Below, one piece after another: positions 13,129 through 57,817 of a DNA stretch of 64,000 nucleotides (positions are counted from its first letter, which is position 1; the number at the start of each line of letters is the position of its first letter). The DNA is taken from assembly GCA_001799615.1 (NCBI GenBank), contig MGTU01000023.1, positions 2,020 through 66,019 on the forward strand, read 5' to 3'. The position numbers and the translations under genes are program-made. The notes under the pieces are model-generated. The model saw only the letters and a list, made by a program, of their open reading frames with translations, did no database searches and was not told the DNA's origin. This DNA comes from Elusimicrobia bacterium GWA2_61_42 (GTDB lineage Bacteria; Elusimicrobiota; Elusimicrobia; Elusimicrobiales; UBA9959).

Positions 13129-13129
13129 A

Positions 13130-42399: not shown

Positions 42400-42515
42400 A
42401 GAGCCTCCAGAGGATCCGCGGGTCTGCCGCTCATTTAAGTATACACCACGGATTCCCGGGTTTCAAGGCTTGCGCCGCTAAGCGGTGCGGGCCCCGTCTT
42501 TTTATTGTAAAATAA

Positions 42516-42830
42516 ATGCGCATGGGAATCTGGGATAACGCCTTTAAATTACCTGTTCAGCCGGAAGTCACGGCGGCGGAAAAAAAACTCCTGGACGCGC
42601 TGGCGGAGAAAGTGGTCAGGCGCAAAATGGGAGACATGGCCGCCATGGCCCTTGAGAGCACCCGGCCCATTCATAACCTGGGCGCCCAGAGCATAGTTTT
42701 TTTAAGCCCGATGCTCAGCATGGTTTTAAAGAAAGAAGAAGTTGACCGGTACGCCAAGATCCTGGAGAACTCCAAAGCGGTGAGTTACCTGATCGAGCGG
42801 CTGGAAGCGGACCCCGGGAAGAAAACCTGA
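42516..42830 (+). CDS. Hypothetical small protein (first gene of the plus-strand island)
   Basis: 104-aa ORF with helical mixed-charge composition and no motif recognised. A TAAAAT box at 42508-42513 lies 8 nt before the second ATG (42522), which may be the true, leaderless start. Confidence 0.55.
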   Translation: MRMGIWDNAFKLPVQPEVTAAEKKLLDALAEKVVRRKMGDMAAMALESTRPIHNLGAQSIVFLSPMLSMVLKKEEVDRYAKILENSKAVSYLIERLEADPGKKT

Positions 42831-42850: not shown

Positions 42851-44644
42851 ATGTCCAAGAAAGACCTTGAAATCATAATCGCGACAGACTGCGGCAGCAC
42901 CACCACCAAGGCCATACTGATAGAGAAGAAAGGCGATACCTACCGCCAGACTTTCCGCGGCGAGGCCCCTACCACCGTAGAGGCCCCCTTCGAGGACGTT
43001 ACCAAGGGCGTGCTCAACTCGATCACCGAGGTAGAGGAACTTTCCGGCCGCAAGATCCTCGACGGCGAAAGGATCATCACCCCGAATTCCGGCAACACCG
43101 GCGCCGATATTTACGTATCCACCTCCTCGGCCGGCGGCGGCCTGCAGATGATGGTGGCCGGTGCCGTGAAGGCCATGACCGGCGAATCCGCGCAGCGCTG
43201 CGCGCTGGGCGCCGGCGCCATCGTGATGGACGTGCTGGCCTCCAACGACGGCCGCGCCGACCACGAAAAGATAGAGCGCATCCGCCAGCTGCGCCCCGAC
43301 ATGATGCTGCTCTCAGGCGGCACGGACGGCGGCACCATCACCCACGTGGTGGAACTCGCGCAGTTCCTGAAGGCCGCGGACCCCAAGCCGCGCCTGGGCG
43401 CTTCCTACAAGCTGCCGGTGATCTACGCCGGCAACAACAAAGCTCACGCGCAGATAACGGAAATACTCGGCGCCAATACCGCCCTGATCATCACCGAGAA
43501 CCTGCGGCCCACGCTGGAGAAAGAGAACCTGATGCCGGCCCGCCACAAGATCCACGATATTTTCCTGGAGCACGTGATGCAGCAGGCCCCGGGCTACCCG
43601 CGCCTGATGAAGATGGTGGGCGCCCCCATCATGCCCACCCCGGCCGCCGTAGGCACGATGACCGAGAAGTTCGCCAAGGCCAATAACTTCAACGTGCTGG
43701 CCGTGGATATCGGCGGCGCCACCACCGACGTCTTTTCGGTGTTCTCCGGAGTTTTCAACCGCACCGTCAGCGCCAACCTGGGGATGAGCTACTCCATCTC
43801 CAACGTGATGGCGGAGGCCGGCCTGGCGAACATCCTGCGCTGGCTGCCTTTCGACATGGACGAGCAGGACCTCAGGAACCGCCTGAAGAACAAGATGATC
43901 CGCCCCACCACCATCCCGCAGACGGTGGAAGACCTGCAGATAGAGCACGCGGTGGCCCGCGAAGCGCTGCGCCTGGCTTTCGACCAGCACAAGGCGCTGG
44001 CCGTCGGCCTGAAAGGCGTGCAGCAGGAGCGCTCGATCTCCGACGCTTTCGACCAGACTTCCTCCGGGCAGAGCCTCATCAACGTGATGAAGCTCGACTA
44101 CGTGATAGGTTCGGGCGGCATCCTCGCGCATTCCCCCCGCCGCACGCAGTCCATGCTGATGATGATAGACGCCTACCAGCCCGAGGGCATCACCCGCATG
44201 GCCGTGGACTCCATCTTCATGATGCCGCACCTGGGCGTGCTGGCCCAGATCAGCGAGAAGGCCGCCCTGGACGTGTTCTACCACGACTGCCTGGTACGGC
44301 TGGGCACCTGCCTCGCCCCCAAGGGCCTGGCCAAGGAAGGCCAGCTTATTATGGAGTGGGAAGTGACCGGCTCCGACGGCAGCAGGCAGGCCGGGGAACT
44401 CCGCTTCGGGGACATCCTCCACGTGCCGTTCGCCGCGCCCAAGGCCAGGCTTGTGGCCAAGCCCGCCAAGGGCTTTGACATGGGCGCCGGCCCCGGCAAC
44501 CGGGCGGAAGCCGACATCGAGGGCGGCGTAGTGGGCCTGGTGCTGGACGGCCGCGGCCGCCCCTTCAACCTGGCCAAGGACCCGACCAAGCGCCGCGACG
44601 ACCTGAACAAATGGTACAAGGCGATGGAGATGTACCCGGTGTAG
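42851..44644 (+). CDS. GlmL/MutL-type (EutA-like) double-ASKHA ATPase-fold protein
   Basis: 597-aa ORF with AAGGAG RBS. Actin-fold signatures ATDCGSTTTKAILIEK, LAVDIGGATTDVFSV and VIGSGGILAHS. The pattern matches glutamate-mutase accessory GlmL / reactivase-type proteins. Confidence 0.7.
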   Translation: MSKKDLEIIIATDCGSTTTKAILIEKKGDTYRQTFRGEAPTTVEAPFEDVTKGVLNSITEVEELSGRKILDGERIITPNSGNTGADIYVSTSSAGGGLQMMVAGAVKAMTGESAQRCALGAGAIVMDVLASNDGRADHEKIERIRQLRPDMMLLSGGTDGGTITHVVELAQFLKAADPKPRLGASYKLPVIYAGNNKAHAQITEILGANTALIITENLRPTLEKENLMPARHKIHDIFLEHVMQQAPGYPRLMKMVGAPIMPTPAAVGTMTEKFAKANNFNVLAVDIGGATTDVFSVFSGVFNRTVSANLGMSYSISNVMAEAGLANILRWLPFDMDEQDLRNRLKNKMIRPTTIPQTVEDLQIEHAVAREALRLAFDQHKALAVGLKGVQQERSISDAFDQTSSGQSLINVMKLDYVIGSGGILAHSPRRTQSMLMMIDAYQPEGITRMAVDSIFMMPHLGVLAQISEKAALDVFYHDCLVRLGTCLAPKGLAKEGQLIMEWEVTGSDGSRQAGELRFGDILHVPFAAPKARLVAKPAKGFDMGAGPGNRAEADIEGGVVGLVLDGRGRPFNLAKDPTKRRDDLNKWYKAMEMYPV

Positions 44645-44681: not shown

Positions 44682-45806
44682 ATGGCTCACGCGTATACAC
44701 CCGGACTTAAAGTCATGCCCTGCACGCTGCTTAAGAAAAAAAGGCTGCTGCCCATCCCCGGCAAAGTGCTGGCCGCCCTGGACCAGCAGGTCGACTCGCT
44801 CGACGTGGTGGCCCAGACCGAACTGCCCGGCAAGGTTTTCTCCGTCAACGTGGCGAACCGCCTGGCCGTCGGCCCCGACGAGATACAGGGCTTCATGCTC
44901 AAGGCGGAGGGCGATCCCGTTAAGAAGGGCGACATTATCGCCGAGAATAAGCCTTTCCTGAAATGGTTCAAGACCTCGGTGGAGTCGCCCGTGGACGGCA
45001 CCGTGGAAGCCATCTCCTTTATAACCGGCCAGGTGCTGCTCCGGGAGCCGCCGAAAGTCCTGCCTATAAAAGCCTACGTGAAAGGTAAAGTGGTGGAGGT
45101 CACGCCCAATTTCGGCGTTACCATCGAGGCGGAAGGCACGTTCATCCAGGGCATTTTCGGCATAGGTGGCGAGACCAACGGCGAGATCTGCGTGGCCGTC
45201 TCCAGCCCCGACGAGGACCTGCAGCCCGAGGCCCTCAAGGAAACGCACAAAGGCAAGATCCTGATAGGCGGCAAGCACGCCAGCCTGGCCACGATCAAGC
45301 GCGCCATAGAACTGGGCGTCAACGCCATAGTGGTGGGCGGCATCCACGACCGCGACCTCCGGCAGCTGCTGGGCTACGACATCGGCGTGGCCGTGACCGG
45401 CAGCGAGCAGCTGGGCGTCACCGTCATCATCACGGAAGGCTTCGGCATGATCCCCATGGCCGAGTATACTTTCAAGCTGCTTTCCTCCCGCAACGGCGAG
45501 AAGGCCTCCGTGTCCGGCGCCACGCAGATCCGCGCCGGCGTCATGCGCCCGGAGATCATCGTGCCCGGCTTCCCCAAGAACGTGACGGAGTGCAAGAAGG
45601 ACCAGGGGCGCGGCTGGATAGAACCCGGCGACCCGATCCGCATCATCCGCGAACCGCATTTCGGCGTGATAGGCACGGTCAAGTCCCTGCCCCCGGAACT
45701 CACCGTCATCGGCAGCGAGTCCCACGCCCGCGTGCTGGAAGTCACGCTGGACGGCGGCGAGGTCATAGTTATCCCCCGCGCCAATATCGAAGTGCTGGAG
45801 AAATAG
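44682..45806 (+). CDS. Hypothetical protein with barrel-sandwich (lipoyl-like) N-terminal region
   Basis: 374-aa ORF with GGAGGA RBS. Hairpin motifs GDPVKKGDIIAE and SPVDGTVEAI, but no biotin/lipoyl Lys motif. Central Gly-rich alpha/beta segment (GKILIGGKHASLATIKRAIELGVNAIVVGG) and a beta-rich C-terminus. Confidence 0.6.
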   Translation: MAHAYTPGLKVMPCTLLKKKRLLPIPGKVLAALDQQVDSLDVVAQTELPGKVFSVNVANRLAVGPDEIQGFMLKAEGDPVKKGDIIAENKPFLKWFKTSVESPVDGTVEAISFITGQVLLREPPKVLPIKAYVKGKVVEVTPNFGVTIEAEGTFIQGIFGIGGETNGEICVAVSSPDEDLQPEALKETHKGKILIGGKHASLATIKRAIELGVNAIVVGGIHDRDLRQLLGYDIGVAVTGSEQLGVTVIITEGFGMIPMAEYTFKLLSSRNGEKASVSGATQIRAGVMRPEIIVPGFPKNVTECKKDQGRGWIEPGDPIRIIREPHFGVIGTVKSLPPELTVIGSESHARVLEVTLDGGEVIVIPRANIEVLEK

Positions 45807-45865: not shown

Positions 45866-48031
45866 ATGGCAAAAAAGAACAAGAAGGAACCAGGCAAGGC
45901 CCGGGACGTAGAGGCGGCCGGCTCGCGCTTTCCCGGCTGGCTGGCCTGGGCGGCGTTCGGCCTCTGGGTCTTCTGGGTCTTTAAGAATTACCTGTCGAAA
46001 CTTCCCCCCGACCTTAACTCGCTGTTCGTCCTGCTCGCTCCCGGCCAGTATTTTTCTTCCGGCCTCCTCTCCGCCCTGCCCGGGCACGCGGCCGCACTGG
46101 CCGCCGGCCTGGCCTTCCTGCTGGCCGCCGCCGGCCTGGGCCGGTTCCTGCTGGTGAGCCTGCTGAAAGCGGGCCCGTTCAGCGCTTTGGAGGAGATAGT
46201 TTTTTCGGCGGCGCTGGGCCTGGCGGCTTTCGCGCACGCCGTGCTGGCCCTGGCGGCCGGCGGGTTCCTTTACCGGTGGCCCGTGCTGGCGCTGCTGGCC
46301 GTATCCGCGGGGCTGGGCGTCTTCTCGCTGAAGTCCTCGCCCCCGGCGCCGCAGGCCCAGGAGCCGTTCCGGCCGGACTTCCCGGCCTTCCTGGCTTTTA
46401 CGCTGCTGGCGGCCGCGCTGCTGCTGGGCCTGGCCGGGGCGCTCAGCCCCGAGATCTTTTACGATTCGCTGGTCTACCACCTGGCCGTTCCCAATTTTTA
46501 CGTCATTAAACACGGCCTGGCGGACATGCCGTATAACCTTTACTCCAACCTTTTCCTGCTGCACGGGATGCTCTATTCAGCGGGCCTGCTGCTGAAAGAC
46601 GAAATGGTGCCCAAGCTGATCAACTACGCGGCCGGCGTCCTGAGCGTGGCCGCGGTGCTGGGGCTGGGCCGCAGGTATTTCACGGCCAGGGCCGGCCTCT
46701 GGGCCGCGCTGATCTTTTATACCGTGGCGCACGCGCTGCTGGCCGCCTGGTCCTCCGGCACGGAGTCCCTGCTTACGCTTTTCTCGCTGTGCGCCCTGGC
46801 CGCGGCCCTCCGCCACGAGCCCGGCGAGAAAAAATTCCTGGTCCTCAGCGCCTTCCTCGCCGGCTGCGGCATGGCGGTGAAGTCCACCGGCCTTTTCTCC
46901 GCCGCGGGCGTCGGCCTGGTGCTGCTGTACCGCGGCCGCTCCAGCCCCGGGGCGGCGCTGCGCTCGGCGCTGCTTTTTACCCTGGTGGCGGCGCTGCCCG
47001 TGCTGCCCTGGCTGGTCAAGAACCAGGTTTACCGGCATAATCCTTTTTTCCCCTTCATGACTTCGGTCTTCGGCGTGCCCGCCAACGCGGACGCCGTCAA
47101 GATAAATAATTTTATGGGAGAAACCAGGCAGATCGGGGCCGTGGAATTAAAGCCGTGGCTGCTGCATCCCTGGAAGATCACGATGGGCGAGATCGGCAAC
47201 TCGCAGTATTTTACGCCGCTTTTCCTGGCCCTGCTGCCGCTGCTTTTCCTGCTGCCGGCTTCGGGCGGAACGGCGCCGTTCTGGATCTATTTTCTTTCCG
47301 GCTGGCTGCTCTGGTCCTTCGCCTCTACCATGGTGCGCTTCCTGATGCCGGCCTACCCGGCCGCCGCGCTGCTTATCGCGGCCGCCCTGGAGGGCAAGGG
47401 GCAGCGGGCGCTGCGCCGCGCGCTTTCCTACGTCACGCTGGCCTCCTGCGCGCTGGGCCTGTACTGGGCCGGGCTGATCTTCTACTCGCAGGGGCGCTGG
47501 AAGCCCGTGCTGGGCCTGGTCTCCAGGACCGATTACCTTTCCAATACGCAGCCCACCTACCCTTACAGCCATTACGCGGCCATAGAGTTCATAAATCAAA
47601 AGCTGCCGGCCGGCGCCAAAACGCTGATCATAGGCGACGGCAGGAGTTTCTATTTTAAGAAGGATTTCGTCGTGAGCTCCGTCTTCGACAAGACCCCGAT
47701 AGTGGAGTACGCGGCCGCCTCCCGCGGCGGCGAGGAACTTTACGCCCGGCTGCGCGCGGAAGGCATAACGCATTTGCTGATAAACGCGGCCGAGGCCATA
47801 AAGCTGCAGGGCTACGGCGTCCTGTACTGGGACGCGCGGGCGCGCGGCGTGTTCGACGAGTTCTGGGCGAGCCACGCCGTCGAGGTTTTCGGGCGCGACG
47901 AGACCCAGGGCGGCAGGTTCCTCAACCGCGTCGCGGTGTACGAGATAGCCCAAAAGCTCCCCCGGGGGACGCCGCCCGCTTTCAACGTTATGAAAGAGGT
48001 CATCATGAGGAATATAGAGGCGGGCAGGTGA
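45866..48031 (+). CDS. Polytopic membrane protein with GT-C (PMT/ArnT-like) glycosyltransferase architecture
   Basis: 721 aa from ATG 45866; the track ORF starts at 45590 inside the previous gene. Lys-rich N-terminus, at least 11 hydrophobic helices, early-loop acidic motif PEIFYDSLVYH, and an about 230-aa soluble C-terminal domain. Confidence 0.6.
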   Translation: MAKKNKKEPGKARDVEAAGSRFPGWLAWAAFGLWVFWVFKNYLSKLPPDLNSLFVLLAPGQYFSSGLLSALPGHAAALAAGLAFLLAAAGLGRFLLVSLLKAGPFSALEEIVFSAALGLAAFAHAVLALAAGGFLYRWPVLALLAVSAGLGVFSLKSSPPAPQAQEPFRPDFPAFLAFTLLAAALLLGLAGALSPEIFYDSLVYHLAVPNFYVIKHGLADMPYNLYSNLFLLHGMLYSAGLLLKDEMVPKLINYAAGVLSVAAVLGLGRRYFTARAGLWAALIFYTVAHALLAAWSSGTESLLTLFSLCALAAALRHEPGEKKFLVLSAFLAGCGMAVKSTGLFSAAGVGLVLLYRGRSSPGAALRSALLFTLVAALPVLPWLVKNQVYRHNPFFPFMTSVFGVPANADAVKINNFMGETRQIGAVELKPWLLHPWKITMGEIGNSQYFTPLFLALLPLLFLLPASGGTAPFWIYFLSGWLLWSFASTMVRFLMPAYPAAALLIAAALEGKGQRALRRALSYVTLASCALGLYWAGLIFYSQGRWKPVLGLVSRTDYLSNTQPTYPYSHYAAIEFINQKLPAGAKTLIIGDGRSFYFKKDFVVSSVFDKTPIVEYAAASRGGEELYARLRAEGITHLLINAAEAIKLQGYGVLYWDARARGVFDEFWASHAVEVFGRDETQGGRFLNRVAVYEIAQKLPRGTPPAFNVMKEVIMRNIEAGR

Positions 48032-48057
48032 GCCCGGGCCCGCGGCCGGGCCTTGCG

Positions 48058-48090
48058 GACCGGAGGCTGAAACCCTCCGGTTTTCTCTTG
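48058..48090 (+). terminator. Putative intrinsic terminator (or attenuator) inside the island
   Basis: CCGGAGG-ctgaaac-CCTCCGG (48060-48080), followed by TTTTCTCTT. Lies 29 nt after the stop of the GT-C-like gene. Confidence 0.55.
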
Positions 48091-48116
48091 CCTGAAAAAT
48101 CCATAAAGTGTATATT
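48088..48116 (+). promoter_or_regulatory. Putative internal promoter for the four-gene membrane module
   Basis: TTGCCT (48088-48093), 17 nt, TATATT (48111-48116). ATG 48128 follows 11 nt later with no Shine-Dalgarno sequence. Confidence 0.45.
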
Positions 48117-48127: not shown

Positions 48128-49363
48128 ATGATTAAAACCAAAGTAATCACCCTTATTGCTTTCATGTTATTCGCGGCCGGCAGCGCCTTCGCCGCTAAAC
48201 CGGCGCCGGCTATCGACGGGTTCGCCGCCCTGGATATGCCTTACGACGTCGGCAACGCGGCGGTCCTCAGGTGGCCTGCCAATCCCGCCGACACCGACGA
48301 TACCTCTTACGTGGTCTACGTCTCCACCCACGAAACCGGCGGGTGGCTGGAGGCCGACCGGTTCGCCGCCGCCGCGAAAACCGGCAAGGACATCGAACTC
48401 CCTTTCTGGGCCTGGAACGGCTCCGCCGCGGAGCACGCCGTAAAGATCGAGCTTAATAACCTTTTCGGAGAGAGCCTGCCCAGTTCCGTTTTCCAGTTCC
48501 GGGTGACGGCAGAAAAGAACAAGAAGGTCATCGCCGAGTCGGCTGTCGTGTCCGTTATGCCGGTGGGCAACTGGTTCCGGCTTGACCGCCTCAATAACCT
48601 TATCCTGCTCATCGTCCTCATTATTATCTTCTTCTGGGCGGTGTCCCACGCCAAGCGCAAGGGCCTGTTCATCCGCCGCATAGCCGGCCTGGACGCCATC
48701 GACGAGGCCATCGGCCGCGCCACCGAAATGGGCAAGCCCATCTTCTACGTGCCCGGCATCGGTTCCATGGGGTCCATCTCCACCATCGCTTCCGCGTTCA
48801 TCCTGGGCGAGGTTTCCAAAAAGGTAGCCCAGTACGATTCCCAGATCAAGGTCCCCCATTACGACCCCATCGTCATGACCGTCTGTAAAGAGATCGTCAA
48901 ACAGTCCTATATGGAAGCCGGCCGCCCGGATTCCTACCGCGAAGACATCAACCAGTTCGTCAGCGCGGACCAGTTCTCTTACGCGGCCTCGGTGGACGGC
49001 ATGATCTCGCGCGAAAAACCCGCCGCCTGCTTCTACATGGGCTACTTCATGGCGGAGTCCCTGCTGCTGGCCGAAGTGGGCGCCACCTCCGGCGCCATCC
49101 AGATAGCCGGCACCGACGTGGAGCACCAGCTGCCCTTCTTCTTCACCGCCTGCGACTACACCCTGATAGGCGAAGAGCTTTACGCCGCGGGCGCCTACCT
49201 CTCCAAGGAGCCCATGCTGCTCAGCGCCCTCAAGGTGCAGGACTTCGGCAAGCTGATCGTCATGGTCTCGGTTTTCTTCGGAATGATCCTGGTGGTGCTG
49301 GGCGCGAAGCTCGGCTGGACCGATTTCGTCCAGGGCCTGCTCCACCTGTTCAAAGGCTACTAA
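48128..49363 (+). CDS. Hypothetical bitopic/tritopic membrane protein (ectodomain + cytoplasmic domain)
   Basis: 411-aa ORF. Signal/anchor ITLIAFMLFAAGSAFA, about 130-aa beta-rich ectodomain (VLRWPANP..YVVYVS..FQFRVTA, FN3-like), TM LILLIVLIIIFFWAV, about 210-aa cytoplasmic domain, C-terminal TM. No family recognised. Confidence 0.6.
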   Translation: MIKTKVITLIAFMLFAAGSAFAAKPAPAIDGFAALDMPYDVGNAAVLRWPANPADTDDTSYVVYVSTHETGGWLEADRFAAAAKTGKDIELPFWAWNGSAAEHAVKIELNNLFGESLPSSVFQFRVTAEKNKKVIAESAVVSVMPVGNWFRLDRLNNLILLIVLIIIFFWAVSHAKRKGLFIRRIAGLDAIDEAIGRATEMGKPIFYVPGIGSMGSISTIASAFILGEVSKKVAQYDSQIKVPHYDPIVMTVCKEIVKQSYMEAGRPDSYREDINQFVSADQFSYAASVDGMISREKPAACFYMGYFMAESLLLAEVGATSGAIQIAGTDVEHQLPFFFTACDYTLIGEELYAAGAYLSKEPMLLSALKVQDFGKLIVMVSVFFGMILVVLGAKLGWTDFVQGLLHLFKGY

Positions 49364-49366
49364 CTT

Positions 49367-50035
49367 ATGAAACTGATAAAAAAACATATACCTTTAGCCA
49401 TAGTGATGGTCACCGGCGTCCTGACGCTGGTGTCCTATTACGTTCCTAACAAGCTGTCCGTCAACTACATCGAGACCCTGAGCCAGTGGGAAAATATCGT
49501 GGTGGCCTTCGCGTTCCTGCTGGGGCTCATCAGCCTGTTCTTCTCCCACTACAACAAGATCTCCAGGAAGGCGGACGGCTGGGGCTACAGCGTGTTCGTC
49601 TTCGTGGGTTTCCTGGCGATGGTGCTGCCCGCCTACCTCAGCCACGGCAAGCAGATGACCGACGCGGGCCTTACGCCGCTGGGCTGGTCTTTCAAATTCA
49701 TCTATAACGCCCTCTCCGGCACCATGTTCGCGGTGCTGGCTTTCTACATCGTCTCCACCGCCTACAGGTCGTTCAGGATAAAATCCATGCAGGCTTTCGT
49801 CCTGTTCGTGGCGGCCTTCATCCTGATCCTCGGCAAGGTCCCGCTGGGCCAGATAATCTGGGATTCCGTGCTGGGCTGGACGGGCCAGGGCGTTTCGGAC
49901 GTCATAGAGTGGATCATGCAGGTCCCCGCCGTGGCCGGCAAGCGCGGCATCATGATCGGCATCTCCATCGGCGCCATCGTGACCTCGCTCAAGATAATCT
50001 TCGGCATCGAGAAACAGTATATGGGGAAGGACTAG
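49367..50035 (+). CDS. Hypothetical polytopic membrane protein (about 6 TM)
   Basis: 222-aa ORF starting 3 nt after the previous stop. Six hydrophobic helices. No family recognised. Confidence 0.6.
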   Translation: MKLIKKHIPLAIVMVTGVLTLVSYYVPNKLSVNYIETLSQWENIVVAFAFLLGLISLFFSHYNKISRKADGWGYSVFVFVGFLAMVLPAYLSHGKQMTDAGLTPLGWSFKFIYNALSGTMFAVLAFYIVSTAYRSFRIKSMQAFVLFVAAFILILGKVPLGQIIWDSVLGWTGQGVSDVIEWIMQVPAVAGKRGIMIGISIGAIVTSLKIIFGIEKQYMGKD

Positions 50036-50039
50036 ACAT

Positions 50040-50864
50040 ATGCTCAAGGAACAACTTCAGAAATTCTTCAAGATAGACAGGCGCTGGATCTTCCTGCTGC
50101 TGGCAATCACGCTGTTCGTCCCGATCATGAAGCCTATCGGCCTGCCTAACAAGACCATCTCCCCCGCCACCAAGAGGGTCTATGAGAGCATCGAGAAACT
50201 GCCCGCCGGTTCTTTCGTGCTTTTCTCGCTCGACTACGACCCCTCGACCAGGCCCGAACTGCACCCCATGGCCACGGCGCTGCTCCGGCACGCTTTCTCG
50301 AAGAACCTGCGCGTTGGCGTGGTCACCTATATCGCCGGCTCCACCGGCCTGATAGAGGAGATCTTTGCCAAGGTCCCCAAGGAATATAATAAGAAGGACG
50401 GGGTCGATTACACGATCCTGCCGTACCAGCCCAATGTGCTGGCGGTCATGACGCAGATGTCCTCGGACCTCTACGGCATCTACTCCCAGGACCGCAACGG
50501 CAACCCGATCATCGACATGCCCGTAATGAAGGGCGTGAAGAACTACAGGGACATGTCGCTGGTGGTAAGCGTTACCGGCACCGCGCTGCTGGATTACTGG
50601 GTGGCCTACGTGGGCGACAAGTACGGCGTGCCGGTGGCCGGCGGCGTTACCGCCATCAGCCAGCCCGGCTACGGGCCCTACCTGCAGACCAACCAGCTGA
50701 AAGGCCTCATCGGCGGCATGAAAGGCGCCGCGGAATACGAGTCGCTGATCAAGCAGCCGGGTAAAGGGACTTCGGGCATAGACGCCCTTAACCTCGCGCA
50801 CCTGCTGGTGCTGGCGCTGATCCTGACTTCCAATATCATTCTTCTGTTCGTAAAGTATTTTTGA
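50040..50864 (+). CDS. Hypothetical membrane protein (TM - soluble domain - TM)
   Basis: 274-aa ORF starting 4 nt after the previous stop. N-terminal TM WIFLLLAITLFVPIM, about 220-aa soluble domain, C-terminal TM LLVLALILTSNIILLFV. No family recognised. Confidence 0.6.
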   Translation: MLKEQLQKFFKIDRRWIFLLLAITLFVPIMKPIGLPNKTISPATKRVYESIEKLPAGSFVLFSLDYDPSTRPELHPMATALLRHAFSKNLRVGVVTYIAGSTGLIEEIFAKVPKEYNKKDGVDYTILPYQPNVLAVMTQMSSDLYGIYSQDRNGNPIIDMPVMKGVKNYRDMSLVVSVTGTALLDYWVAYVGDKYGVPVAGGVTAISQPGYGPYLQTNQLKGLIGGMKGAAEYESLIKQPGKGTSGIDALNLAHLLVLALILTSNIILLFVKYF

Positions 50865-50894
50865 TAGGTTTTATAACTTTCTTTTGAGGTGATT

Positions 50895-51626
50895 ATGTCA
50901 GAAACATGGCTTATTATCGGCGGTTGGGTTTCCGCGGGGCTCACGATCTTCCTGTTCAGCTTCCTTTACAAGGACAACCCGTTCTTTAAAATAGCCGAGC
51001 ACCTGTACCTCGGCGCCGGCATGGGCTGGCTGTTCCAGGTTTCGGTCACCAACGTGTGGCTGCCGAAGATCTGGGAGCCCGTGATGAACGGCGAGCTGCT
51101 GGTGATAATCCCCTCCATCCTGGGTATTTCGCTGCTGACCCAGTTCATCCCCAGGATCTCCTGGATCTCCCGCTACGGCTTCACCTTCATGATGGGCTAC
51201 GGGTCCGGCCTGGCCATCCCCGCCGGGTTGTCCACCGACTTCCTCAGCCAGATCGGCGGCACGATAAAGCCTTTCTCGATGCTGGCCTCCATGACCCCGT
51301 TCAATATCTTCGGGTCGCTGCTGGTGGCGGGCGGCACTATCTGCGTGCTCTTCTACTTCTTTTTCTCGGTGGAGCATAAAGGCCACCTGCAGAAGATCTC
51401 CAACGTGGGCATTTACTTCCTGATGATCTACTTCGGCGCGGCGTTCGGCAACACCGTCATGGCCCGCTTCTCGCTGCTGTACGGACGCTTCGACGACCTG
51501 TACACCTACTCCGCGGTAAAGTATTTCTACGCCACCCAGGTCATCCTGGTAGCCATGGTCGTCTACTTTATCCTGCACTCCTTCTTCACGAAGAATAAGA
51601 AAGACGTTTCCGAGGAAGCCGCCTAG
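50895..51626 (+). CDS. Hypothetical polytopic membrane protein (about 7 TM)
   Basis: 243 aa from ATG 50895 (GAGGTGA RBS just upstream); the track begins at GTG 50889. About seven hydrophobic helices. No family recognised. Followed by a strong terminator. Confidence 0.6.
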   Translation: MSETWLIIGGWVSAGLTIFLFSFLYKDNPFFKIAEHLYLGAGMGWLFQVSVTNVWLPKIWEPVMNGELLVIIPSILGISLLTQFIPRISWISRYGFTFMMGYGSGLAIPAGLSTDFLSQIGGTIKPFSMLASMTPFNIFGSLLVAGGTICVLFYFFFSVEHKGHLQKISNVGIYFLMIYFGAAFGNTVMARFSLLYGRFDDLYTYSAVKYFYATQVILVAMVVYFILHSFFTKNKKDVSEEAA

Positions 51627-51642
51627 CGCGGGGCGCAAGCCG

Positions 51643-51680
51643 AAAAAGGGCGGGCCGGAATATCCGGCCCGCCCTTTTTT
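51643..51680. terminator. Bidirectional intrinsic terminator
   Basis: AAAAA-GGGCGGGCCGGA-ata-TCCGGCCCGCCC-TTTTTT: a perfect 12-bp GC-rich stem (51648-51674) between convergent genes. Confidence 0.85.
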
Positions 51681-51696: not shown

Positions 51697-52554
51697 TTAT
51701 TTTATGATCTCTATCTTCGCCTTCTGGCGCAGTTCGGCGGCCAGTTCCGGCAGCCTGGCGGTTATGGCCTGGTTGAGCAGGGCGGCCTTGATCTCTTCTT
51801 TCAGCGGCTCGAAAGCGGCTTCCTGTCCCGGTTTGCGCTCCTCCGCCTTGAAAATGCTGTAACCGTTGCCCGTGGCCAGCGGCTTGGTGTACTGGCCCGG
51901 CTTAAGGGCGAAGATCTCCTTCTCCATTTCCGGCAGCAGCATGCCTTTGGAAATATAGCCGAGGCTGCCGCCGTTCTTGCGCAGGTTGGCGTCGGCCGAT
52001 TTAAGGCCGGAGAGCTTGGCGAAGTCGGCGCCCACCGAGGTGAGCAGCTCATAAGCGTCGTCGGCTTCGGCCCTGGTGTTAACGAAGATCTGGCTCAGCT
52101 TCACTGATTCCGGGGCGCCCATGCGCTCCTTGTTCTTGTCGAAGAAGTCTTTGGCTTCCGCGTCGGTCACGGACAGTTTTTTCGCCGTTATCAGCACCGC
52201 TCGGATGGTCTGCTGGCGGCGTATAAGGTCGCGCAGGTCGGCCGGCGACCAACCGACGGACTTCAGGTTCTTTTCGAACTGCGCCTTGTCGGCGTAGCCG
52301 GCGGCCAGGCTGTCGAAGCGGGCTTCCGTCTCTTTCTGGTCCGCTTTTACGCCGAGGCGCGCGGCTTCCTCCAGCAGGAGTTTCTCGTCTATGATCTCCG
52401 AGAGCGCCTGGGCGCCGTGCTGCCACCAGAGCTTCTTCGTCAGTTCTTCGCGGGAGACCTTCTGGCCGTTCACCAGGGCCACTTCCTTCTCCGCGGCGTA
52501 AAGCCCGGTGGCGAACGCCGCCAGGACGGCCGCCGCTAATATGGTTTTTTTCAT
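51697..52554 (-). CDS. Peptidyl-prolyl cis-trans isomerase, SurA/PrsA-like (parvulin type)
   Basis: 285-aa ORF. Signal peptide, chaperone-like helical N-domain, and a parvulin domain (VKLSQIFV...GGSLGYISKGMLLPEMEKEIFALKPGQYTKP..TGNGYSIFK). Confidence 0.8.
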   Translation of the reverse strand: MKKTILAAAVLAAFATGLYAAEKEVALVNGQKVSREELTKKLWWQHGAQALSEIIDEKLLLEEAARLGVKADQKETEARFDSLAAGYADKAQFEKNLKSVGWSPADLRDLIRRQQTIRAVLITAKKLSVTDAEAKDFFDKNKERMGAPESVKLSQIFVNTRAEADDAYELLTSVGADFAKLSGLKSADANLRKNGGSLGYISKGMLLPEMEKEIFALKPGQYTKPLATGNGYSIFKAEERKPGQEAAFEPLKEEIKAALLNQAITARLPELAAELRQKAKIEIIK

Positions 52555-52570
52555 GGGTTCCTCCGTATCC

Positions 52571-53638
52571 TCACTTCTTGACTAAAACTGTCTGGGTGGG
52601 GTAGGCCAGCTCCGCGCCGGCGCCCCCCAATCCTTCCAGGACGGCCAGCAGTACGGCTTCGTGGGCGGCCATGTAGGCTTTATAGTCGGGCTCCGCCAGG
52701 TAGTAGACCGTTTCGAAATCCAGCGAGAAAGCCCCGCAGTCGCTCAGGTTGCAGCGGTCGAACTCGGCTTTGGCCACCGACTCCACGGCTTTGCGGGCGA
52801 TAGCGGGGATCTTTTTGAGCAGCTCGGGCTTGGTGCCGTAGACTATGCCGGTCTTGAAGACCACGCGCCGCTTGGTGAGGTCCTGGTAGTTGCGGATGCG
52901 CGAGCCCAGCAGGTTGGAGTTGGAGACCACCACCATCTCGCCCGAGATGCTGCGGATGCGGGTGGATTTCAGGCCGATGTGCTCTATGGTGCCCGAAACG
53001 GCGTCGGACACCACGAAATCCCCTACGGTGAAGGGCTTGTCGAGCAGGATGACGAAGAAGTTGAACAGGTCGCCCAGGATGGCCTGGGCGGCCAGGGCCA
53101 CGGCCACGCCGCCGATGCCGAGGCCGGTAAGCACGGCCGAGATGTTGACGCCGAGGTTATCCAGCACGAACAGCGCCGCCGCCACCCAGACCAGGGCGCG
53201 CATGATGACCTGGGTGCTGTTGACGACGGAGGTTTTGGCGGAGCCCGAGAGCTCGCGCTGGGCGGCTATCTTGTTTATCCAGTAGGAGAGCAGCGTTTGG
53301 ACTATGGTGATGGCCCGGTAGGTGAAGACCAGGAGTATTACGAGCTTGAGGGCTTTGTCGAAGGCCAGGCTGCGGTTGAGGTAGCGGGTGGCGATGAAAA
53401 GGGCCGCCAGCTGGTACTCGAACCACCTGAATTTGGCTATCAGGGCTATCAGCAGGTCGTCCAGGTCGGTTTCGGTCTTCTCGGCCAGGGCCTTGAGCCG
53501 GCTGATGCCGATGTTCTTGATGAGGTAAAGCAGGGCCAGCGAGGCCCCGAAGGCGACCAGCGCGTACCCGTAGACGGCCGGCGTATTGCCGAGGATCAGG
53601 CTGTTGTCGAACCAGTTGGAAAGCGAGTTAAAGTTCAT
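52571..53638 (-). CDS. Mechanosensitive ion channel (MscS family)
   Basis: Start set at ATG 53638 (TATAAT box 6 nt upstream); the track ORF starts at 53683. Several TMs, then the MscS beta-domain FTVGDFVVSDAVSGTIEHIGLKSTRIRSISGEMVVVSNS. Confidence 0.8.
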   Translation of the reverse strand: MNFNSLSNWFDNSLILGNTPAVYGYALVAFGASLALLYLIKNIGISRLKALAEKTETDLDDLLIALIAKFRWFEYQLAALFIATRYLNRSLAFDKALKLVILLVFTYRAITIVQTLLSYWINKIAAQRELSGSAKTSVVNSTQVIMRALVWVAAALFVLDNLGVNISAVLTGLGIGGVAVALAAQAILGDLFNFFVILLDKPFTVGDFVVSDAVSGTIEHIGLKSTRIRSISGEMVVVSNSNLLGSRIRNYQDLTKRRVVFKTGIVYGTKPELLKKIPAIARKAVESVAKAEFDRCNLSDCGAFSLDFETVYYLAEPDYKAYMAAHEAVLLAVLEGLGGAGAELAYPTQTVLVKK

Positions 53639-53729
53639 AACTAAATTATAAAAGATTTCCCCCCGCCGTAACAATGAAGACATAAGGCGGGCTTGCAGCC
53701 GGTGAAAACAGGCCCGTAAAGTTTAAGCC

Positions 53730-53947: not shown

Positions 53948-54349
53948 TTATTTGTAGTGGCGGCGCAGGTCGGATTTCTTGACGCTGGCCAGTTCGAAGT
54001 CCTGGGTCATTGCGAGGGCCTTCTTCGGGCAGACTTCGGCGCACTGGCCGCAGTACACGCAGTGGTCCAGCTTCATGATGCAGTCGAATTTCTTCTTGGC
54101 GGGCACCGCGGGCTGGCCTTCCACCGGCGCCGGCGCCGCCGGCTGCTCCGCCGACAAAGGGATCTCTATCGCCTTCGAAGGGCAGACTTTTACGCACATC
54201 TGGCAGCCGATGCACTTGGCTGAATCGAAGACGATGCGGCCCCGGAAGTTGGGGAAAATATAGGCCTTCTCAAAAGGATAGCGGGACGTGGCCGGCTTCT
54301 TGAAAAGGTGCTTTATCACTTCGCTGAAAACTCTGGCTGGTATTTTCAT
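53948..54349 (-). CDS. 2x[4Fe-4S] ferredoxin-type subunit (NuoI/MbhN/HycF-like)
   Basis: 133-aa ORF. CIGCQMCVKVCP and CVYCGQCAEVCP cluster motifs. Last gene of the complex. Confidence 0.85.
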   Translation of the reverse strand: MKIPARVFSEVIKHLFKKPATSRYPFEKAYIFPNFRGRIVFDSAKCIGCQMCVKVCPSKAIEIPLSAEQPAAPAPVEGQPAVPAKKKFDCIMKLDHCVYCGQCAEVCPKKALAMTQDFELASVKKSDLRRHYK

Positions 54350-54353
54350 GGAG

Positions 54354-55307
54354 TTATCCTATCCTGTATTTAAGGAAGATGTCGAAAGCCACCTGGGCCA
54401 TGGCTACCGGGGCCAGGTACTTCCAGCAGAAATTTATCATCTGCTCTATGCGGATGCGGGCCATCAGCACTTTCAGCAGCGCCAGCAGGAAAGTGATGAA
54501 CAGCGTTTTGCCCAGGAAGACCGCCAGGCCGGCCGCGCCGGCGAAGCCGAGCGAACCGCCGAGGAAGACGGCGTTCACGAGCGCCGCGCCCACCACCAGT
54601 TCCATGTCCACCGCCAGGCAGAAGAAGCCGAACAGGCGCCCGGAGTATTCCGTGAACTGCCCGCCGACGATCTCGTTCTTGGCGTGGGGGATGTCGAAAG
54701 GCATGCGCTCGAGCTTGCCCTGCAGGGCTACCAGTGCCGCCAGGAAGCCCAGCAGCTGCGCCGGGATAAGCGCGGGGTGCGCGGCGAAGAAAGCGGAGAT
54801 CTCCGAGATGTTCCAGGTGCCCGCGAGTATCGCCGGGCCGATCAGCGAGAGCATCAGCGGCACTTCGTAGGCGAAGAGCTGCGTCAGCACGCGCATGGAA
54901 CCCACCGTGGAGTAGGGGCTCGACGAGCTCCAGCCGGCCAGGAAGAACGTGACCGTGGGGATGGTAAGCAGGTAGATCACCACCACCATGTCCCCCTGGA
55001 AGCTGAACAGGGCGGCCGGGGTCCAGACCGGGATGGAGATAAGGGCCGTCATGACGGCCGCCATCGCGAAGAAGGGCAGTACGCGGAACATCGTCTTGTT
55101 GGTGGCGGCGTCCGGCACTATGACTTCCTTCGCCAGCAGCTTTATGAAGTCGGCGTAGGGCTGGATCCAGGGAGGGCCCATGCGGTTCTGCATCACCGCG
55201 CAGAGTTTCCGGTCCACCCACTGGAGGTACAGGCCGTAGACGGCCAGGAACAGGAAGCCGGGGAATATCAGTATATAAGCAAGCGGAAGTATTGATTCCA
55301 TTGTCAT
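54354..55307 (-). CDS. Membrane subunit NuoH/MbhM/HycD-like
   Basis: 317-aa polytopic ORF. N-terminal WVDRKLCAVMQNRMGPPW block typical of the NuoH/HycD family. Confidence 0.85.
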   Translation of the reverse strand: MTMESILPLAYILIFPGFLFLAVYGLYLQWVDRKLCAVMQNRMGPPWIQPYADFIKLLAKEVIVPDAATNKTMFRVLPFFAMAAVMTALISIPVWTPAALFSFQGDMVVVIYLLTIPTVTFFLAGWSSSSPYSTVGSMRVLTQLFAYEVPLMLSLIGPAILAGTWNISEISAFFAAHPALIPAQLLGFLAALVALQGKLERMPFDIPHAKNEIVGGQFTEYSGRLFGFFCLAVDMELVVGAALVNAVFLGGSLGFAGAAGLAVFLGKTLFITFLLALLKVLMARIRIEQMINFCWKYLAPVAMAQVAFDIFLKYRIG

Positions 55308-55324
55308 GTATCCTTAAAGTCTGC

Positions 55325-56518
55325 TCACAGCCTGCTGAAGTCCACGCCGCGGCGCTTGTACTGCTCGATGCCCAGCTTGCGCATCTCTTCCCAGCTGTAA
55401 ACCTCGGTCTTGCCCTTCTTGGGGTTCCAGACGGCGGCGCGGTCCGTGCAGGACATGCACGGATCGATGGCGGCTATCACCAGCGGCACGTCGGCCAGCC
55501 AGCCGCCCTCGAGCATGTAGGCCACGCTCTGCAGGTTGGCCAGCGTCGGGGCGCGCACTTTAAGCCGCTCGGGCTTGTCGGTGCCGTTGGACTTCAGGTA
55601 ATGGATGTCCTCGCCGCGGGGCGCTTCGTAATGGTTCACGCATTCGCCGGGGGCGACCTTCATGGGCACCTTCACGGCTACGGGGCCTTCCGGCAGGTTG
55701 TTGAGGACCTGGTTGATGATCTTGTAGGATTCCACCAGCTCTAGCGCGCGCACCACCAGGCGGCCGAAGACGTCGTTGGTGTTGTGCGTGATAAGGTTAA
55801 AGTCCAGCTGGGCGTAGAGCAGGTACGGGTCGTCCTTGCGCACGTCGCGGGCGACGCCCGAGGCGCGGGCGGTGGGCCCCACGGCGCCGCGTTCGATGGC
55901 CACGTCGTAAGGCAGCTTGCCGACGTTGGCGGTGCGGGCCAGCACGGTGGGTTCCTGGGTGGCCAGCTTAATGTAATACTGGGTCCTTTCCTCCAGGTAC
56001 TTTATGCGCTTGAGCACCTCCGCCTTCTGTTCGGCGGTGATGTCGCGGCGCACGCCGCCCAGGGTGTTGATGGAGTAGTGCACCCGGTTGCCGCTGAGCA
56101 GCTCCAGGCAGTCCAGCACCTGTTCGCGGTCGCGCCAGGTGTACATGAACAGGGTCTCAAAGCCCATTTCGTAGCCGGCCACGCCCAGCCACAGCAGGTG
56201 GCTGTGGACGCGCTCGAGCTCGGCGAACAGGGTGCGGATGGCCAGCGCCCGCTGGGGCACTTCGGCCTTGGCCAGTTCTTCCACGTTGGTGATGTAGGTG
56301 GTGGTGTGAGAGTGCGAGCAGATGCCGCAGACGCGCTCTATCAGGTAGAGGTTCTGGATGTAGGTGCGGCCTTCGGCGGCCTTTTCCATGCCGCGGTGGT
56401 TGTAGCCCAGGTTGATGCCGGCGCTGGTGATCTGTTCGCCTTCCAGCACCAGCATGAAATTCTCGGGTTCTTTAAGGGCCGGGTGCTGGGGGCCGAAAGG
56501 AATGGTTATCTTTGACAT
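55325..56518 (-). CDS. Group 4 [NiFe]-hydrogenase large subunit (NuoD/MbhL/EchE-like)
   Basis: 397-aa ORF. Both NiFe-ligand motifs are intact: RVCGICSHSH (Cys64, Cys67) and DPCMSCTDR (aa 352-360). 37 residues follow the second motif. Confidence 0.9.
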   Translation of the reverse strand: MSKITIPFGPQHPALKEPENFMLVLEGEQITSAGINLGYNHRGMEKAAEGRTYIQNLYLIERVCGICSHSHTTTYITNVEELAKAEVPQRALAIRTLFAELERVHSHLLWLGVAGYEMGFETLFMYTWRDREQVLDCLELLSGNRVHYSINTLGGVRRDITAEQKAEVLKRIKYLEERTQYYIKLATQEPTVLARTANVGKLPYDVAIERGAVGPTARASGVARDVRKDDPYLLYAQLDFNLITHNTNDVFGRLVVRALELVESYKIINQVLNNLPEGPVAVKVPMKVAPGECVNHYEAPRGEDIHYLKSNGTDKPERLKVRAPTLANLQSVAYMLEGGWLADVPLVIAAIDPCMSCTDRAAVWNPKKGKTEVYSWEEMRKLGIEQYKRRGVDFSRL

Positions 56519-56519
56519 G

Positions 56520-57011
56520 TTATTTGGTCTCCGTCTTTAAAGAGGGCTGCTGCGCCAGGTAATCCTCGGTTTTCCAGTCCTTGCGCAGCGGGTACTGGCC
56601 AACGGGGAAGTCTTCGGCCAAAGGGTAGCGGCGGCCCGGGGGCAGGCCCTGGACCTTTATGCCCAGCATGTCCTCAAGTTCTTTCTCGTAAGAAACGGCG
56701 CCCGGGAATACCGAGAGCACCGACGGGATGGAAGGGTTGGCCCTGGGGGTCTTGACCTTCAGCGTGACGATGATCTTCGTATCGGTCATGTGGTAATAAG
56801 CCCCGAGGTTCTCCCCCTCGTCGAAACCGGTGACGGTGGCCAGGTGGTTGAAGCCGCCGGCCTTCATCCAGGCGAGGATCTCGGGCAGCTTTTCACCCGC
56901 GGCGTCCAGCCAGACGCGGTTCTTGCGCTGCACCAGGGCGTTGGTCACGGCCCCCGGGAATTTGGCCTCGAGGCCGGCTTTTATTTTTTCTTCTTTTTCA
57001 AATTCGCTCAT
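56520..57011 (-). CDS. NuoC/MbhK-like 30-kDa subunit
   Basis: Start set at ATG 57011 (GGAGA RBS); the track ORF begins at 57041 inside the upstream gene. NuoC-family sequence (ATVTGFDEGENLGAYYHM..). Confidence 0.85.
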   Translation of the reverse strand: MSEFEKEEKIKAGLEAKFPGAVTNALVQRKNRVWLDAAGEKLPEILAWMKAGGFNHLATVTGFDEGENLGAYYHMTDTKIIVTLKVKTPRANPSIPSVLSVFPGAVSYEKELEDMLGIKVQGLPPGRRYPLAEDFPVGQYPLRKDWKTEDYLAQQPSLKTETK

Positions 57012-57021
57012 GGCAGTCTCC

Positions 57022-57465
57022 TTACTTGGCCGCGGCTTCAACGCTCTGTATCATCTTCACCACGCCGTCGATGATGGCTTCAGGGCGCACCGGGCAGCCG
57101 GGGATGTAGACGGAAACCGGCAGCACCTGGTCCAGGCCGCCGGGCACCACGCCGTAGCAGCCGTCGAACACGCCGCCGGAACAGCCGCAGGCGCCTATGG
57201 CCATGACGAACTTGGGCTCGGGCATCTGGTCGTAAATGGTCCTGAGGCGTTTGGCCTGCTGGCGGGTGACGGGCCCGCTGACTACCAGGATGTCCGCGTG
57301 CCGGGGCGTGGCTTTCAGCACTATGCCGAAGCGTTCCACGTCGTACTTCGGCGTCAGGGCGTCCACTATCTCGATATCGCAGCCGTTGCAGGCGCCGGAG
57401 TTGAAGTGGAGTATCCAGGGGGATTTAAGCAGCGACCAGGTTATCAGTTTGTCTATGGTTTTCAT
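57022..57465 (-). CDS. Hydrogenase small subunit, NuoB/MbhJ-like ([4Fe-4S] N2-type)
   Basis: 147-aa ORF. Cluster ligand contexts ACNGCDIE, GACGCSGG and PGCPVRPE. Confidence 0.9.
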   Translation of the reverse strand: MKTIDKLITWSLLKSPWILHFNSGACNGCDIEIVDALTPKYDVERFGIVLKATPRHADILVVSGPVTRQQAKRLRTIYDQMPEPKFVMAIGACGCSGGVFDGCYGVVPGGLDQVLPVSVYIPGCPVRPEAIIDGVVKMIQSVEAAAK

Positions 57466-57471
57466 GTTTGT

Positions 57472-57813
57472 TCAATCCACGAAGAGTATGGCTAGGATCA
57501 CGCCCACCGCCGCCAGGTAGCCGGCTACCAGCTCTATCCCGGCGGACAGGGGGTTGAAGCTCCAGGTGGCGAGCATCAGCCCGGCCACGTGCAACAGCGT
57601 GAAAAAGATGGCGAAAGGGAAGAAGCCCTGGTAGTCGGGGATCGCCTTGGCCTGGTCTTCGGGCACGTCTTCGCCGCAGCCGTAGGCCTTGTGCTTGGCC
57701 GAGCCGGGCACGCGGGCCGGGTTCGCCGCCATCGGGGAAAGCAGCGCCGACAGCCCCGCCACGAAGAGCAGGGAGATTATGAAGACCACGGGAGGAAAGA
57801 GTAAGAAGTCCAT
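57472..57813 (-). CDS. Small membrane subunit, NuoA/MbhI-like
   Basis: 113-aa ORF. Three TMs with a loop motif AYGCGEDV resembling the NuoA YECG loop. Confidence 0.6.
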   Translation of the reverse strand: MDFLLFPPVVFIISLLFVAGLSALLSPMAANPARVPGSAKHKAYGCGEDVPEDQAKAIPDYQGFFPFAIFFTLLHVAGLMLATWSFNPLSAGIELVAGYLAAVGVILAILFVD

Positions 57814-57817
57814 AGGG

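Follow-up and report, generated by a model that had tools for sequence, protein, structure and literature searches.

The question raised by this locus is what four closely linked genes for membrane proteins are for, and which other genes they work with. The four, here called P1 to P4, lie in a stretch of 64,000 nucleotides (nt) from the genome of Elusimicrobia bacterium GWA2_61_42 (assembly GCA_001799615.1, contig MGTU01000023.1, positions 2,020 to 66,019 of the forward strand), referred to below as the window. An earlier, sequence-only reading had described them as coupled membrane proteins of no recognisable family that look like a stoichiometric trans-envelope complex. The answer that we favour, at evenly balanced confidence, is that P1-P4 are the membrane module of a seven-gene, ATP-driven inner-membrane machine, U0-U1-U2 plus P1-P2-P3-P4, into which a glycosyltransferase gene has been inserted in the present Elusimicrobiota genome, dividing the system in two. 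As a whole, the system has no characterised relative and falls outside every kind of membrane complex that we tested; judged by profile matches, membership is established only for P1, in Pfam DUF6754, and for U1, in the broad Pfam MutL family.

That P1-P4 are coding genes and not chance open reading frames (ORFs) follows from three observations. Their GC content at third codon positions (GC3, 0.84-0.87) matches that of the true genes in this window of about 62% GC, the shadow ORFs having values of 0.43-0.66; orthologues of each of the four, 30-50% identical, occur in other, distant phyla; and public collections hold identical gene products for each of them. Their lengths, their position on the plus strand throughout and the intergenic gaps of 3, 4 and 30 nt are exactly as the sequence-only reading had given them (Table 1). 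For P4, an in-frame GTG at 50889, two codons before the ATG, would extend the product to 245 aa and is the less likely start, and the Shine-Dalgarno sequence GAGGTG lies 5-9 nt upstream of the ATG.

Further evidence concerning the quartet comes from its distribution. We scanned one genome per GTDB species with an alignment of P1, which returned at least 593 loci, and examined the best 80; a reciprocal search seeded with U1 in an independent metagenome collection gave at least 515 matches, and again the best 80 were examined. P1-P2-P3-P4 are collinear, on one strand and within 5 kb, in all 67 of the 67 loci with enough downstream sequence, and U1 and U2 directly precede P1 on the same strand in 55 of the 63 loci with enough upstream sequence. 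Unsupervised clustering of the ORFs of these loci recovers the six families together with a seventh, U0 (about 105-125 aa), which stands directly 5' of U1 and is present, on the strand of U1, in 56/80 loci; no further family conserved across phyla was found in the 80 loci. Starting from U1, we found U2 directly next in 55/61 loci and the complete order U1-U2-P1-P2-P3-P4 in 27/34, and among the exceptions are one locus in which the quartet adjoins on the other side and one with a larger insert.

Spacing and rates of divergence tell the same story. Median intergenic gaps within the unit range from -4 nt, the median overlap of P1 and P2 across orthologues, to 86 nt, and pairwise-distance matrices correlate at r = 0.93-0.98 among P1-P4 and at r = 0.89-0.98 among all six larger families, so that the set is inherited as a unit. 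The loci carry about 12 phylum-level labels in total: Elusimicrobiota, Nitrospirota, Ca. Methylomirabilis, anammox Planctomycetota (Scalindua, Brocadiaceae, Anammoxibacter), Binatia, WOR-3, Gemmatimonadota, Latescibacterota, BRC1, Poribacteria, Thermodesulfobacteriota and Myxococcales. The system is absent from plasmid and phage collections; it is chromosomal, housekeeping-like and vertically inherited.

The proposal that the quartet is one unit across phyla was therefore borne out, and neither homology to a known complex nor occurrence of the four genes independently of one another came to light. Because of the unbroken collinearity, the closely matching distance matrices and the overlap of P1 with P2, the natural reading of these genomic proxies is that P1-P4 constitute a stoichiometric membrane complex, most likely assembled as one inner-membrane complex. 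Its subunits do not appear to be copies of one another. BLASTP detected no hidden paralogy between the cytoplasmic domain of P1 and the large domain of P3 or between P2 and P4, and all-against-all hhalign comparison of the six larger families (P1-P4, U1 and U2), using cross-phylum alignments, gave a best probability of 2.5%; paralogy among the subunits was rejected on these grounds.

The description of the quartet as having no recognisable family holds for P2, P3 and P4 and fails for P1. The latter matches Pfam DUF6754 (PF20539) at E = 5e-112 (373.6 bits, gathering threshold 27; model positions 3-250 of 257) over aa 147-393 (nt 48566-49306), and the domain is carried by 120 of the 120 P1 homologues among the matches listed; homologue searches returned at least 8,000 proteins each for P1 and for U2. 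P1 is thus a clear member of DUF6754, a family that is a catalogue entry with no function, structure or paper attached to it. Open-access text contained nothing on DUF6754 or PF20539, and sequence and profile searches of the PDB found no relative of P1.

An AlphaFold2 model of P1 (predicted local distance difference test, pLDDT, 71) comprises a signal peptide (aa 1-23, with cleavage between AFA and AKP), a beta-sandwich ectodomain, a transmembrane (TM) helix at 152-177, an alpha/beta domain and a second TM helix at 362-395. The ectodomain (aa ~24-150, nt 48197-48577) is not covered by the Pfam domain and is FN3-like according to Foldseek (E = 2e-5), which returned FN3 matches only for the P1 model. 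Since positive-inside counts across 78 orthologues give 6.6 Lys + Arg for the alpha/beta domain versus 1.9 and 1.6, we place the DUF6754 domain in the cytoplasm. Model, structural matches and charge counts agree with the topologies that the sequence-only reading had drawn by eye. Conservation differs sharply between the two parts of P1: in the cross-phylum conservation map the cytoplasmic domain, with the motifs GRATEMGKP, GAIQIAGTD and QLPFFxTxCDYTLIGEELYAA, is strongly conserved and far above the FN3 ectodomain, which is barely conserved and the least conserved part of the protein. Furthermore, the region before the first TM helix is shortened to about 65-90 residues in a few lineages.

Neither Pfam, NCBIfam nor PADLOC has a family for P2, P3 or P4, cross-phylum profiles gave no match in the PDB, and Pfam scans of individual orthologues at E <= 1 (24-28 orthologues of each, 28 for P2 and 24 for P3) brought out no consistent weak family. 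P2 has 6 TM helices in 59/74 orthologues, with both termini predicted to be inside, and P4 has 5-7 hydrophobic segments with its N-terminus outside, which together amounts to about 12-13 TM helices. The conserved motifs of P2 (H61, gTMFa.LAF.i.S.AYRsFR and kIIfG.E) are at predicted cytoplasmic helix ends and loops, as are FLYkDNP.FK.aEh and the FS.EH.G part of YFfFS.EH.G in P4, in which FLMi.FGAaFG.TvMaR.SLL.GR is also conserved. Conserved positions within TM helices are mostly Gly, Ala and Ser, that is, packing motifs, and neither P2 nor P4 has a conserved Cys.

P3 is built differently, with TM helices at aa 17-35 and aa 253-271 on either side of a domain of about 217 aa and alpha/beta type. 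This large domain is probably extracytoplasmic, because the two short tails have a higher density of Lys and Arg than the flanks of the domain, and it is the least secure of our topology calls. The cytoplasmic N-tail has an invariant DRR, and the domain itself is moderately conserved, its conserved positions being D65-x-D67-P, E73, H84, D123, D151, W187 and Y233-E234, with several of the acidic and His residues invariant and the D-x-D-P motif following a predicted strand. The P3 family comprises 4,126 clusters at 50% identity, among which no Rosetta-stone fusion to another subunit was found; its long members are insertions or duplications only.

One of the soluble partners is an ATPase. The earlier statement that there are no nucleotide-binding motifs holds for the quartet and is misleading for the system, since U1, an ATPase with invariant motifs, is co-inherited with the quartet, as are two more cytoplasmic proteins. 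U1 matches Pfam MutL (PF13941) at 425.7 bits (gathering threshold 27) along model positions 1-449 of 450 and aa 9-479, and its ASKHA nucleotide motifs (phosphate-1, phosphate-2 and adenosine) are invariant in 54 orthologues: ATDCGSTTTKA, GGTDGG, VDIGGATTDVFS and GSGG. With 46% of its positions at least 95% conserved in the same orthologues and identities of 63-68% across phyla, U1 evolves at a pace like that of core machinery, which implies strong and ancient selection. The MutL/GlmL family is known for a single activity, that of a chaperone reactivating glutamate mutase in an ATP-dependent manner (PMC4682846), and as part of the actin superfamily it is listed among the non-polymerising enzymes (PMC5597319).

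We rejected the possibility that U1 is GlmL proper. While U1 shares the Pfam family and the ASKHA nucleotide motifs with MutL/GlmL, it differs in being co-inherited with membrane proteins and not with glutamate mutase genes. It scores 234.5 bits against the NCBIfam GlmL equivalog NF040745 (cut-off 475) and 167.5 bits against TIGR01319 glmL_fam (cut-off 204), is 27% identical to annotated GlmL, and has an extra C-terminal domain of about 115 aa that GlmL lacks and that is preceded by an invariant C480-x6-C487. The canonical context of GlmL is glmS-glmL-glmE-mal, and glmS or glmE never occurs beside U1, either among the conserved neighbours of the 80 loci or at the exceptional U1 loci. A profile search of the PDB with U1 found no match and no solved reactivase, and open-access text on PF13941 contained nothing relevant. 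Public pipelines would name U1 'glutamate mutase L / GlmL', which is misleading for thousands of genomes.

U0 and U2, like U1, have no TM helix or signal peptide. U0 has no Pfam or PADLOC match; it contains a moderately hydrophobic segment at aa 55-71 and the conservation pattern LEs..P...lG.Q...fl.P. For U2, a confident AlphaFold2 model (pLDDT 85.4) contains a barrel-sandwich-hybrid (BSH) domain, a beta-barrel, a PA-like alpha/beta domain and a KOW/SH3-like C-terminus. Its N-terminal MAHAYTPGL (aa 1-9, nt 44682-44708) is invariant across phyla and predicted to be disordered (pLDDT below 50), which suggests a docking peptide or a processed N-terminus. Sequence and profile searches of the PDB found no relative of U2, and Foldseek with the U2 model gave single-domain matches only (NusG/Spt5 KOW, BesA, the ZNRF3 PA domain and a biotinyl domain).

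One resemblance of U2 needed to be weighed with care. In Pfam scans of 17 orthologues, RnfC_N was matched in 13 (best E = 1.3e-6), Biotin_lipoyl in 12, NQRA_N in 6 and KOW in 2, and a peripheral cytoplasmic subunit with a BSH domain beside small 6-TM proteins is reminiscent of NQR and RNF. However, U2 shares with them the generic BSH fold only: since no NqrA or RnfC is among the top 50 Foldseek matches of the U2 model, the weak RnfC_N and NQRA_N matches reflect that fold, and Biotin_lipoyl scores equally well. U2 has no matches to NQR/RNF domains beyond the BSH (Rossmann-like, SLBB), and Rnf-Nqr, NQR2_RnfD_RnfE and FMN_bind are matched neither by P1-P4 nor by their orthologues at E <= 1. We thus rejected U2 as an NqrA/RnfC-like protein.

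Other known systems fare no better as relatives. The claim that P1-P4 have no ABC, MFS, RND, Sec, Tol/Exb, Nqr/Rnf or Mrp signature was upheld by Pfam, NCBIfam and the scans of individual orthologues. No ABC_tran or permease match was found in the seven proteins, ABC genes occurring only as an insert in one relative described below. With regard to the 5:2 motors of the Tol/Exb/Mot type, there is no MotA_ExbB or ExbD/TolR/MotB-type match, and the cytoplasmic insert of P1 is alpha/beta and not helical. EutA matches U1 at E = 0.032 and 13.5 bits (cut-off 27), which does not place U1 among the DDR/EutA reactivases, and PilM, PilN and PilO of the PilMNO/GspL group (type IV pilus/type II secretion system) have no match. 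PADLOC defence models gave no significant match, and a defence system or mobile element was rejected given the lack of PADLOC, plasmid or phage matches and the vertical inheritance.

How, then, might the seven proteins work? The conservation of P1, P2 and P4 is concentrated on the cytoplasmic face, to which P1 would contribute its DUF6754 domain, P2 and P4 their helix ends and loops, and P3 its DRR N-tail, and this face would dock a soluble module consisting of the ATPase U1, the small partner U0 and the adaptor U2. ATP binding and hydrolysis by U1 would drive a conformational cycle, which we propose because the known activity of the family is an ATP-dependent reactivation and because the nucleotide motifs are intact. 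By way of U2/U0 and the DUF6754 domain, the cycle would reach the TM bundle, which would relay it to the extracytoplasmic domain of P3 and, where present, the FN3 domain of P1. The peptide- or protein-binding types of domain in the U2 model (BSH, PA-like and KOW) count in favour of such a machine. The outcome, with energy presumably flowing in this direction, would be an ATP-powered inner-membrane transducer or transporter with an ASKHA and not a P-loop ATPase.

The proposed working principle has precedents, the closest analogies being mechanotransmission systems and the MreB-MreC-MreD arrangement taken up below. In the mechanotransmission of FtsEX, MacB and LolCDE, cytoplasmic ATP hydrolysis is passed via TM helices to an extracytoplasmic domain. 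This is an analogy and not homology: the ATPase of the unit described here is actin-fold, and no ABC ATPase, P-loop or FtsX/MacB-type permease is matched. A bolder version of the same proposal is that the seven genes represent a new class of primary membrane machine, serving a so far unrecognised housekeeping task in many non-model phyla (among them those of Nitrospira, anammox bacteria, Methylomirabilis, Elusimicrobia, Latescibacterota and Gemmatimonadota), in which an actin-fold (ASKHA, MutL/GlmL-type) ATPase energises the complex in the place taken elsewhere by P-loop, P-type or rotary ATPases; the complex would consist wholly of proteins from families without a characterised member. We put this forward tentatively, as a rather doubtful extension.

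Several observations weigh against an ATP-driven seven-gene machine. The 160 loci are a best-scoring subset dominated by Nitrospirota and cannot be counted as phylogenetically independent. The 8 kb upstream of the quartet contain no U1 and U2 in 8/63 loci (WOR-3, one Nitrospirota, one Brocadiaceae and two Elusimicrobia, the last with large inserts), and a few low-GC loci have U0-U1 by themselves in the midst of housekeeping genes; the membrane and soluble modules can therefore be unlinked. The model of the DUF6754 domain is of moderate confidence (pLDDT ~55-85), the sidedness of the P3 domain is read from weak charge statistics, and the conservation map shows none of the conserved mid-membrane acidic or basic residues that ion pumps typically have.

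The likeliest of the alternatives is a membrane enzyme formed by P1-P4, perhaps with U2, for which U1 (large) and U0 (small) would serve as a dedicated activase. ATP would then be spent on maintenance and not on transport, an active site or cofactor being installed, repaired or gated in analogy to the reactivating chaperones of B12-dependent mutases and dehydratases. Diol dehydratase reactivase has a small-plus-large subunit layout that U0 (104 aa) and U1 (597 aa) echo; C480-x6-C487 of U1 could bind a metal or Fe-S centre, as is known of other ASKHA activators; and P3 offers conserved Asp, Glu and His residues, including D-x-D-P. Reactivating chaperones are also the only characterised relatives of U1 (PMC4682846). 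Against this, U1 is far from GlmL in identity, lacks a DdrA/EutA match beyond E = 0.03 as well as any PDB match by profile, and has no B12-binding, radical-SAM or other cofactor family for company, either in the seven proteins or among their conserved neighbours. Moreover, the candidate catalytic residues of P3 are on the probably extracytoplasmic side, beyond the reach of a cytoplasmic activase, and overall we find an enzyme with its activase unlikely. Alternatively, the complex could be a transporter, secondary or primary, that moves ions or solutes, belongs to a new family and has U0-U2 as mere regulators, which would make sense of the two polytopic subunits and their many TM helices, and the Rossmann-like cytoplasmic domain of P1 between two TM helices could, by analogy, be a regulatory RCK-like module. 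Yet the conserved TM residues are the packing ones described above and not mid-membrane charges, no similarity to transporter families in Pfam, NCBIfam or the PDB was found, and a protein that merely regulates would not usually be under the tightest constraint in the set, as U1 is; the chance that such a transporter is at work here is slight indeed.

The architecture of the unit also invites comparison with MreB-MreC-MreD, in which one actin-superfamily protein is likewise combined with a bitopic protein that has an extracytoplasmic domain and with small polytopic proteins, all encoded in one operon. U1 might accordingly be a membrane-tethered actin-superfamily scaffold, with P1-P4 acting like MreC/MreD/RodZ in positioning envelope synthesis. 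Proteins that form polymers or make multiple contacts typically show cross-phylum conservation in a range that covers the identities of U1, and the housekeeping-like, chromosomal and vertical character of the system would suit such a role. However, nothing above noise links the unit to MreB, MreC or MreD by sequence or profile (U1 reaches E = 0.042 with MreB-like_C, and P2-P4 have no match), the conserved neighbours in the 80 loci include no gene for peptidoglycan or division, and the MutL/GlmL family is listed as non-polymerising (PMC5597319). We therefore give a cytoskeletal anchor little credence. The remaining alternative is the earlier proposal itself, an autonomous, nucleotide-independent trans-envelope complex of P1-P4 alone. 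It is true that the quartet is the tightest unit, that in the window a promoter-like site and a terminator of its own flank it, that it occurs without U1 and U2 nearby in some loci, and that its domains lie on either side of the membrane; but U0, U1 and U2 are co-inherited with it, conservation peaks on the cytoplasmic face, and its periplasmic parts are small, the FN3 domain being poorly conserved and shortened in some lineages. The trans-envelope part of the proposal, in particular, is not supported, as no outer-membrane or periplasm-spanning component is conserved nearby in the 80 loci and the conserved surfaces of P1, P2 and P4 are cytoplasmic. An autonomous complex is, in our judgement, improbable, and an ATP-driven inner-membrane machine of seven proteins remains the reading that we prefer.

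Table 1. Coordinates of the genes and signals of the split seven-gene system in the window
Feature	Position	Strand	Description
U0	42516..42830	+	104 aa, no family; first gene of the conserved unit
U1	42851..44644	+	597-aa MutL/GlmL-family ASKHA (actin-fold) ATPase
U2	44682..45806	+	374-aa cytoplasmic multi-domain protein
GT-C (PMT_2/ArnT-like) glycosyltransferase	45890..48031	+	713 aa; PMT_2 E = 5e-7; outside the conserved unit
Hairpin with T-run	48057-48087 (hairpin 48057-48083)	+	fold -16.4 kcal/mol, z = -2.2, modest
Sigma-70-like promoter TTGCCT-17-TATATT	48088-48116	+	promoter scan, 9/12 consensus matches
P1	48128..49363	+	411 aa, DUF6754 protein
P2	49367..50035	+	222 aa, polytopic, no family
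P3	50040..50864	+	274 aa, bitopic, no family
P4	50895..51626	+	243 aa from ATG, polytopic, no family
Bidirectional intrinsic terminator	51642..51680	both	common to P4 and the convergent SurA/PpiC-like gene

In the window, the unit is interrupted between U2 and P1 by the glycosyltransferase gene of Table 1, which is found at this position in some Elusimicrobia only; elsewhere the gap between U2 and P1 has a median of 66 nt. In another Elusimicrobia genome (L004), five genes for an Opp/Dpp ABC transporter occupy this junction (1582-7810 of its locus), and because of these two different inserts we call the U2-P1 junction an insertion hotspot in Elusimicrobia. A functional tie of the glycosyltransferase to the unit was rejected, as the other Elusimicrobia genome has the Opp transporter there instead and the junction is empty in other phyla. 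The quartet itself is bracketed by a hairpin and a promoter-like site on its 5' side and by a very strong terminator on its 3' side, with -35.2 kcal/mol (z = -7.3) on the plus strand, -33.8 kcal/mol (z = -5.4) on the minus strand and T-runs on both sides. The promoter-like TTGCCT-17-TATATT, judged by its consensus matches, is probably the own promoter of P1-P4 after the insertion, and the quartet probably has such a site in the window because the glycosyltransferase gene was inserted upstream.

The surroundings of the unit offered further observations. The divergent intergenic region contains a 12-bp GC-rich hairpin with a T-run (42467-42503), about 12 nt 5' of the U0 start. Neither the L003 nor the L081 locus conserves this hairpin and it matches no Rfam family; a riboswitch or leader was rejected on these grounds. 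Divergent from U0 is a minus-strand gene (40732-42399) for a 555-aa protein with a Gly/Ala/Ser-rich, low-complexity N-terminal half and two HYDIN/ASH-type Ig-like domains. At the other end, genes for a SurA/PpiC-type parvulin and an MscS channel (51697-53683, minus strand) converge on P4, a neighbourhood kept with the quartet within Elusimicrobia only (L002-L007). Three metagenome loci of 34-41% GC (L129, L146 and L155) contain full-length U1 orthologues at 63-66% identity with no U2 or quartet nearby, next to gcvP, queF, plsX/fabH, TPR or M24 peptidase genes; in L129, a 101-aa ORF of no assigned family occupies the position of U0. In one of the 80 loci, L010 from Nitrospirota, the genes next after the quartet, and on its strand, are pilB, pilT and pilC (11468-15757); nothing of the kind is present in the window, and a link to the type IV pilus was rejected given this single occurrence.

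More distant parts of the window, all on the minus strand, contain several recognisable gene groups. A membrane-bound [NiFe] hydrogenase/Mrp-like module at 53948-63321, with a 2x[4Fe-4S] protein, a NuoH-like protein, a NuoD-like large subunit with a C-terminal CxxC region and three Proton_antipo_M proteins, is a candidate group-4 (Mbh/Ech-type) energy-converting hydrogenase. A MoxR (AAA_3) ATPase, a DUF58 protein, a 316-aa protein of no known kind and a BatA/vWA protein at 3748-7589 make up a Bat-type aerotolerance or MoxR-vWA operon. Additionally, we noted a secreted giant of 1,899 aa with multiple Kelch beta-propeller repeats and an FN3 domain (13130-18829), a tRNA gene (19671-19741) and an Lnt apolipoprotein N-acyltransferase (26122-27537), which fits a diderm lipoprotein pathway.

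Overall, these results define the gene set, order, motifs and topology of a system that has so far gone without description, a keyword search of open-access text on its families having found nothing relevant, and they make it testable. Five of its seven families have no annotation at all and two have a name only, one of which, the label 'glutamate mutase L / GlmL' for U1, is misleading in the genomes that carry it. The system is not a curiosity of a single metagenome-assembled genome: its carriers include the main nitrite oxidisers, anammox bacteria and nitrite-dependent methane oxidisers. If the seven proteins do cooperate, they would provide the first known case of a membrane system coupled to an actin-fold ATPase of the MutL/GlmL type.

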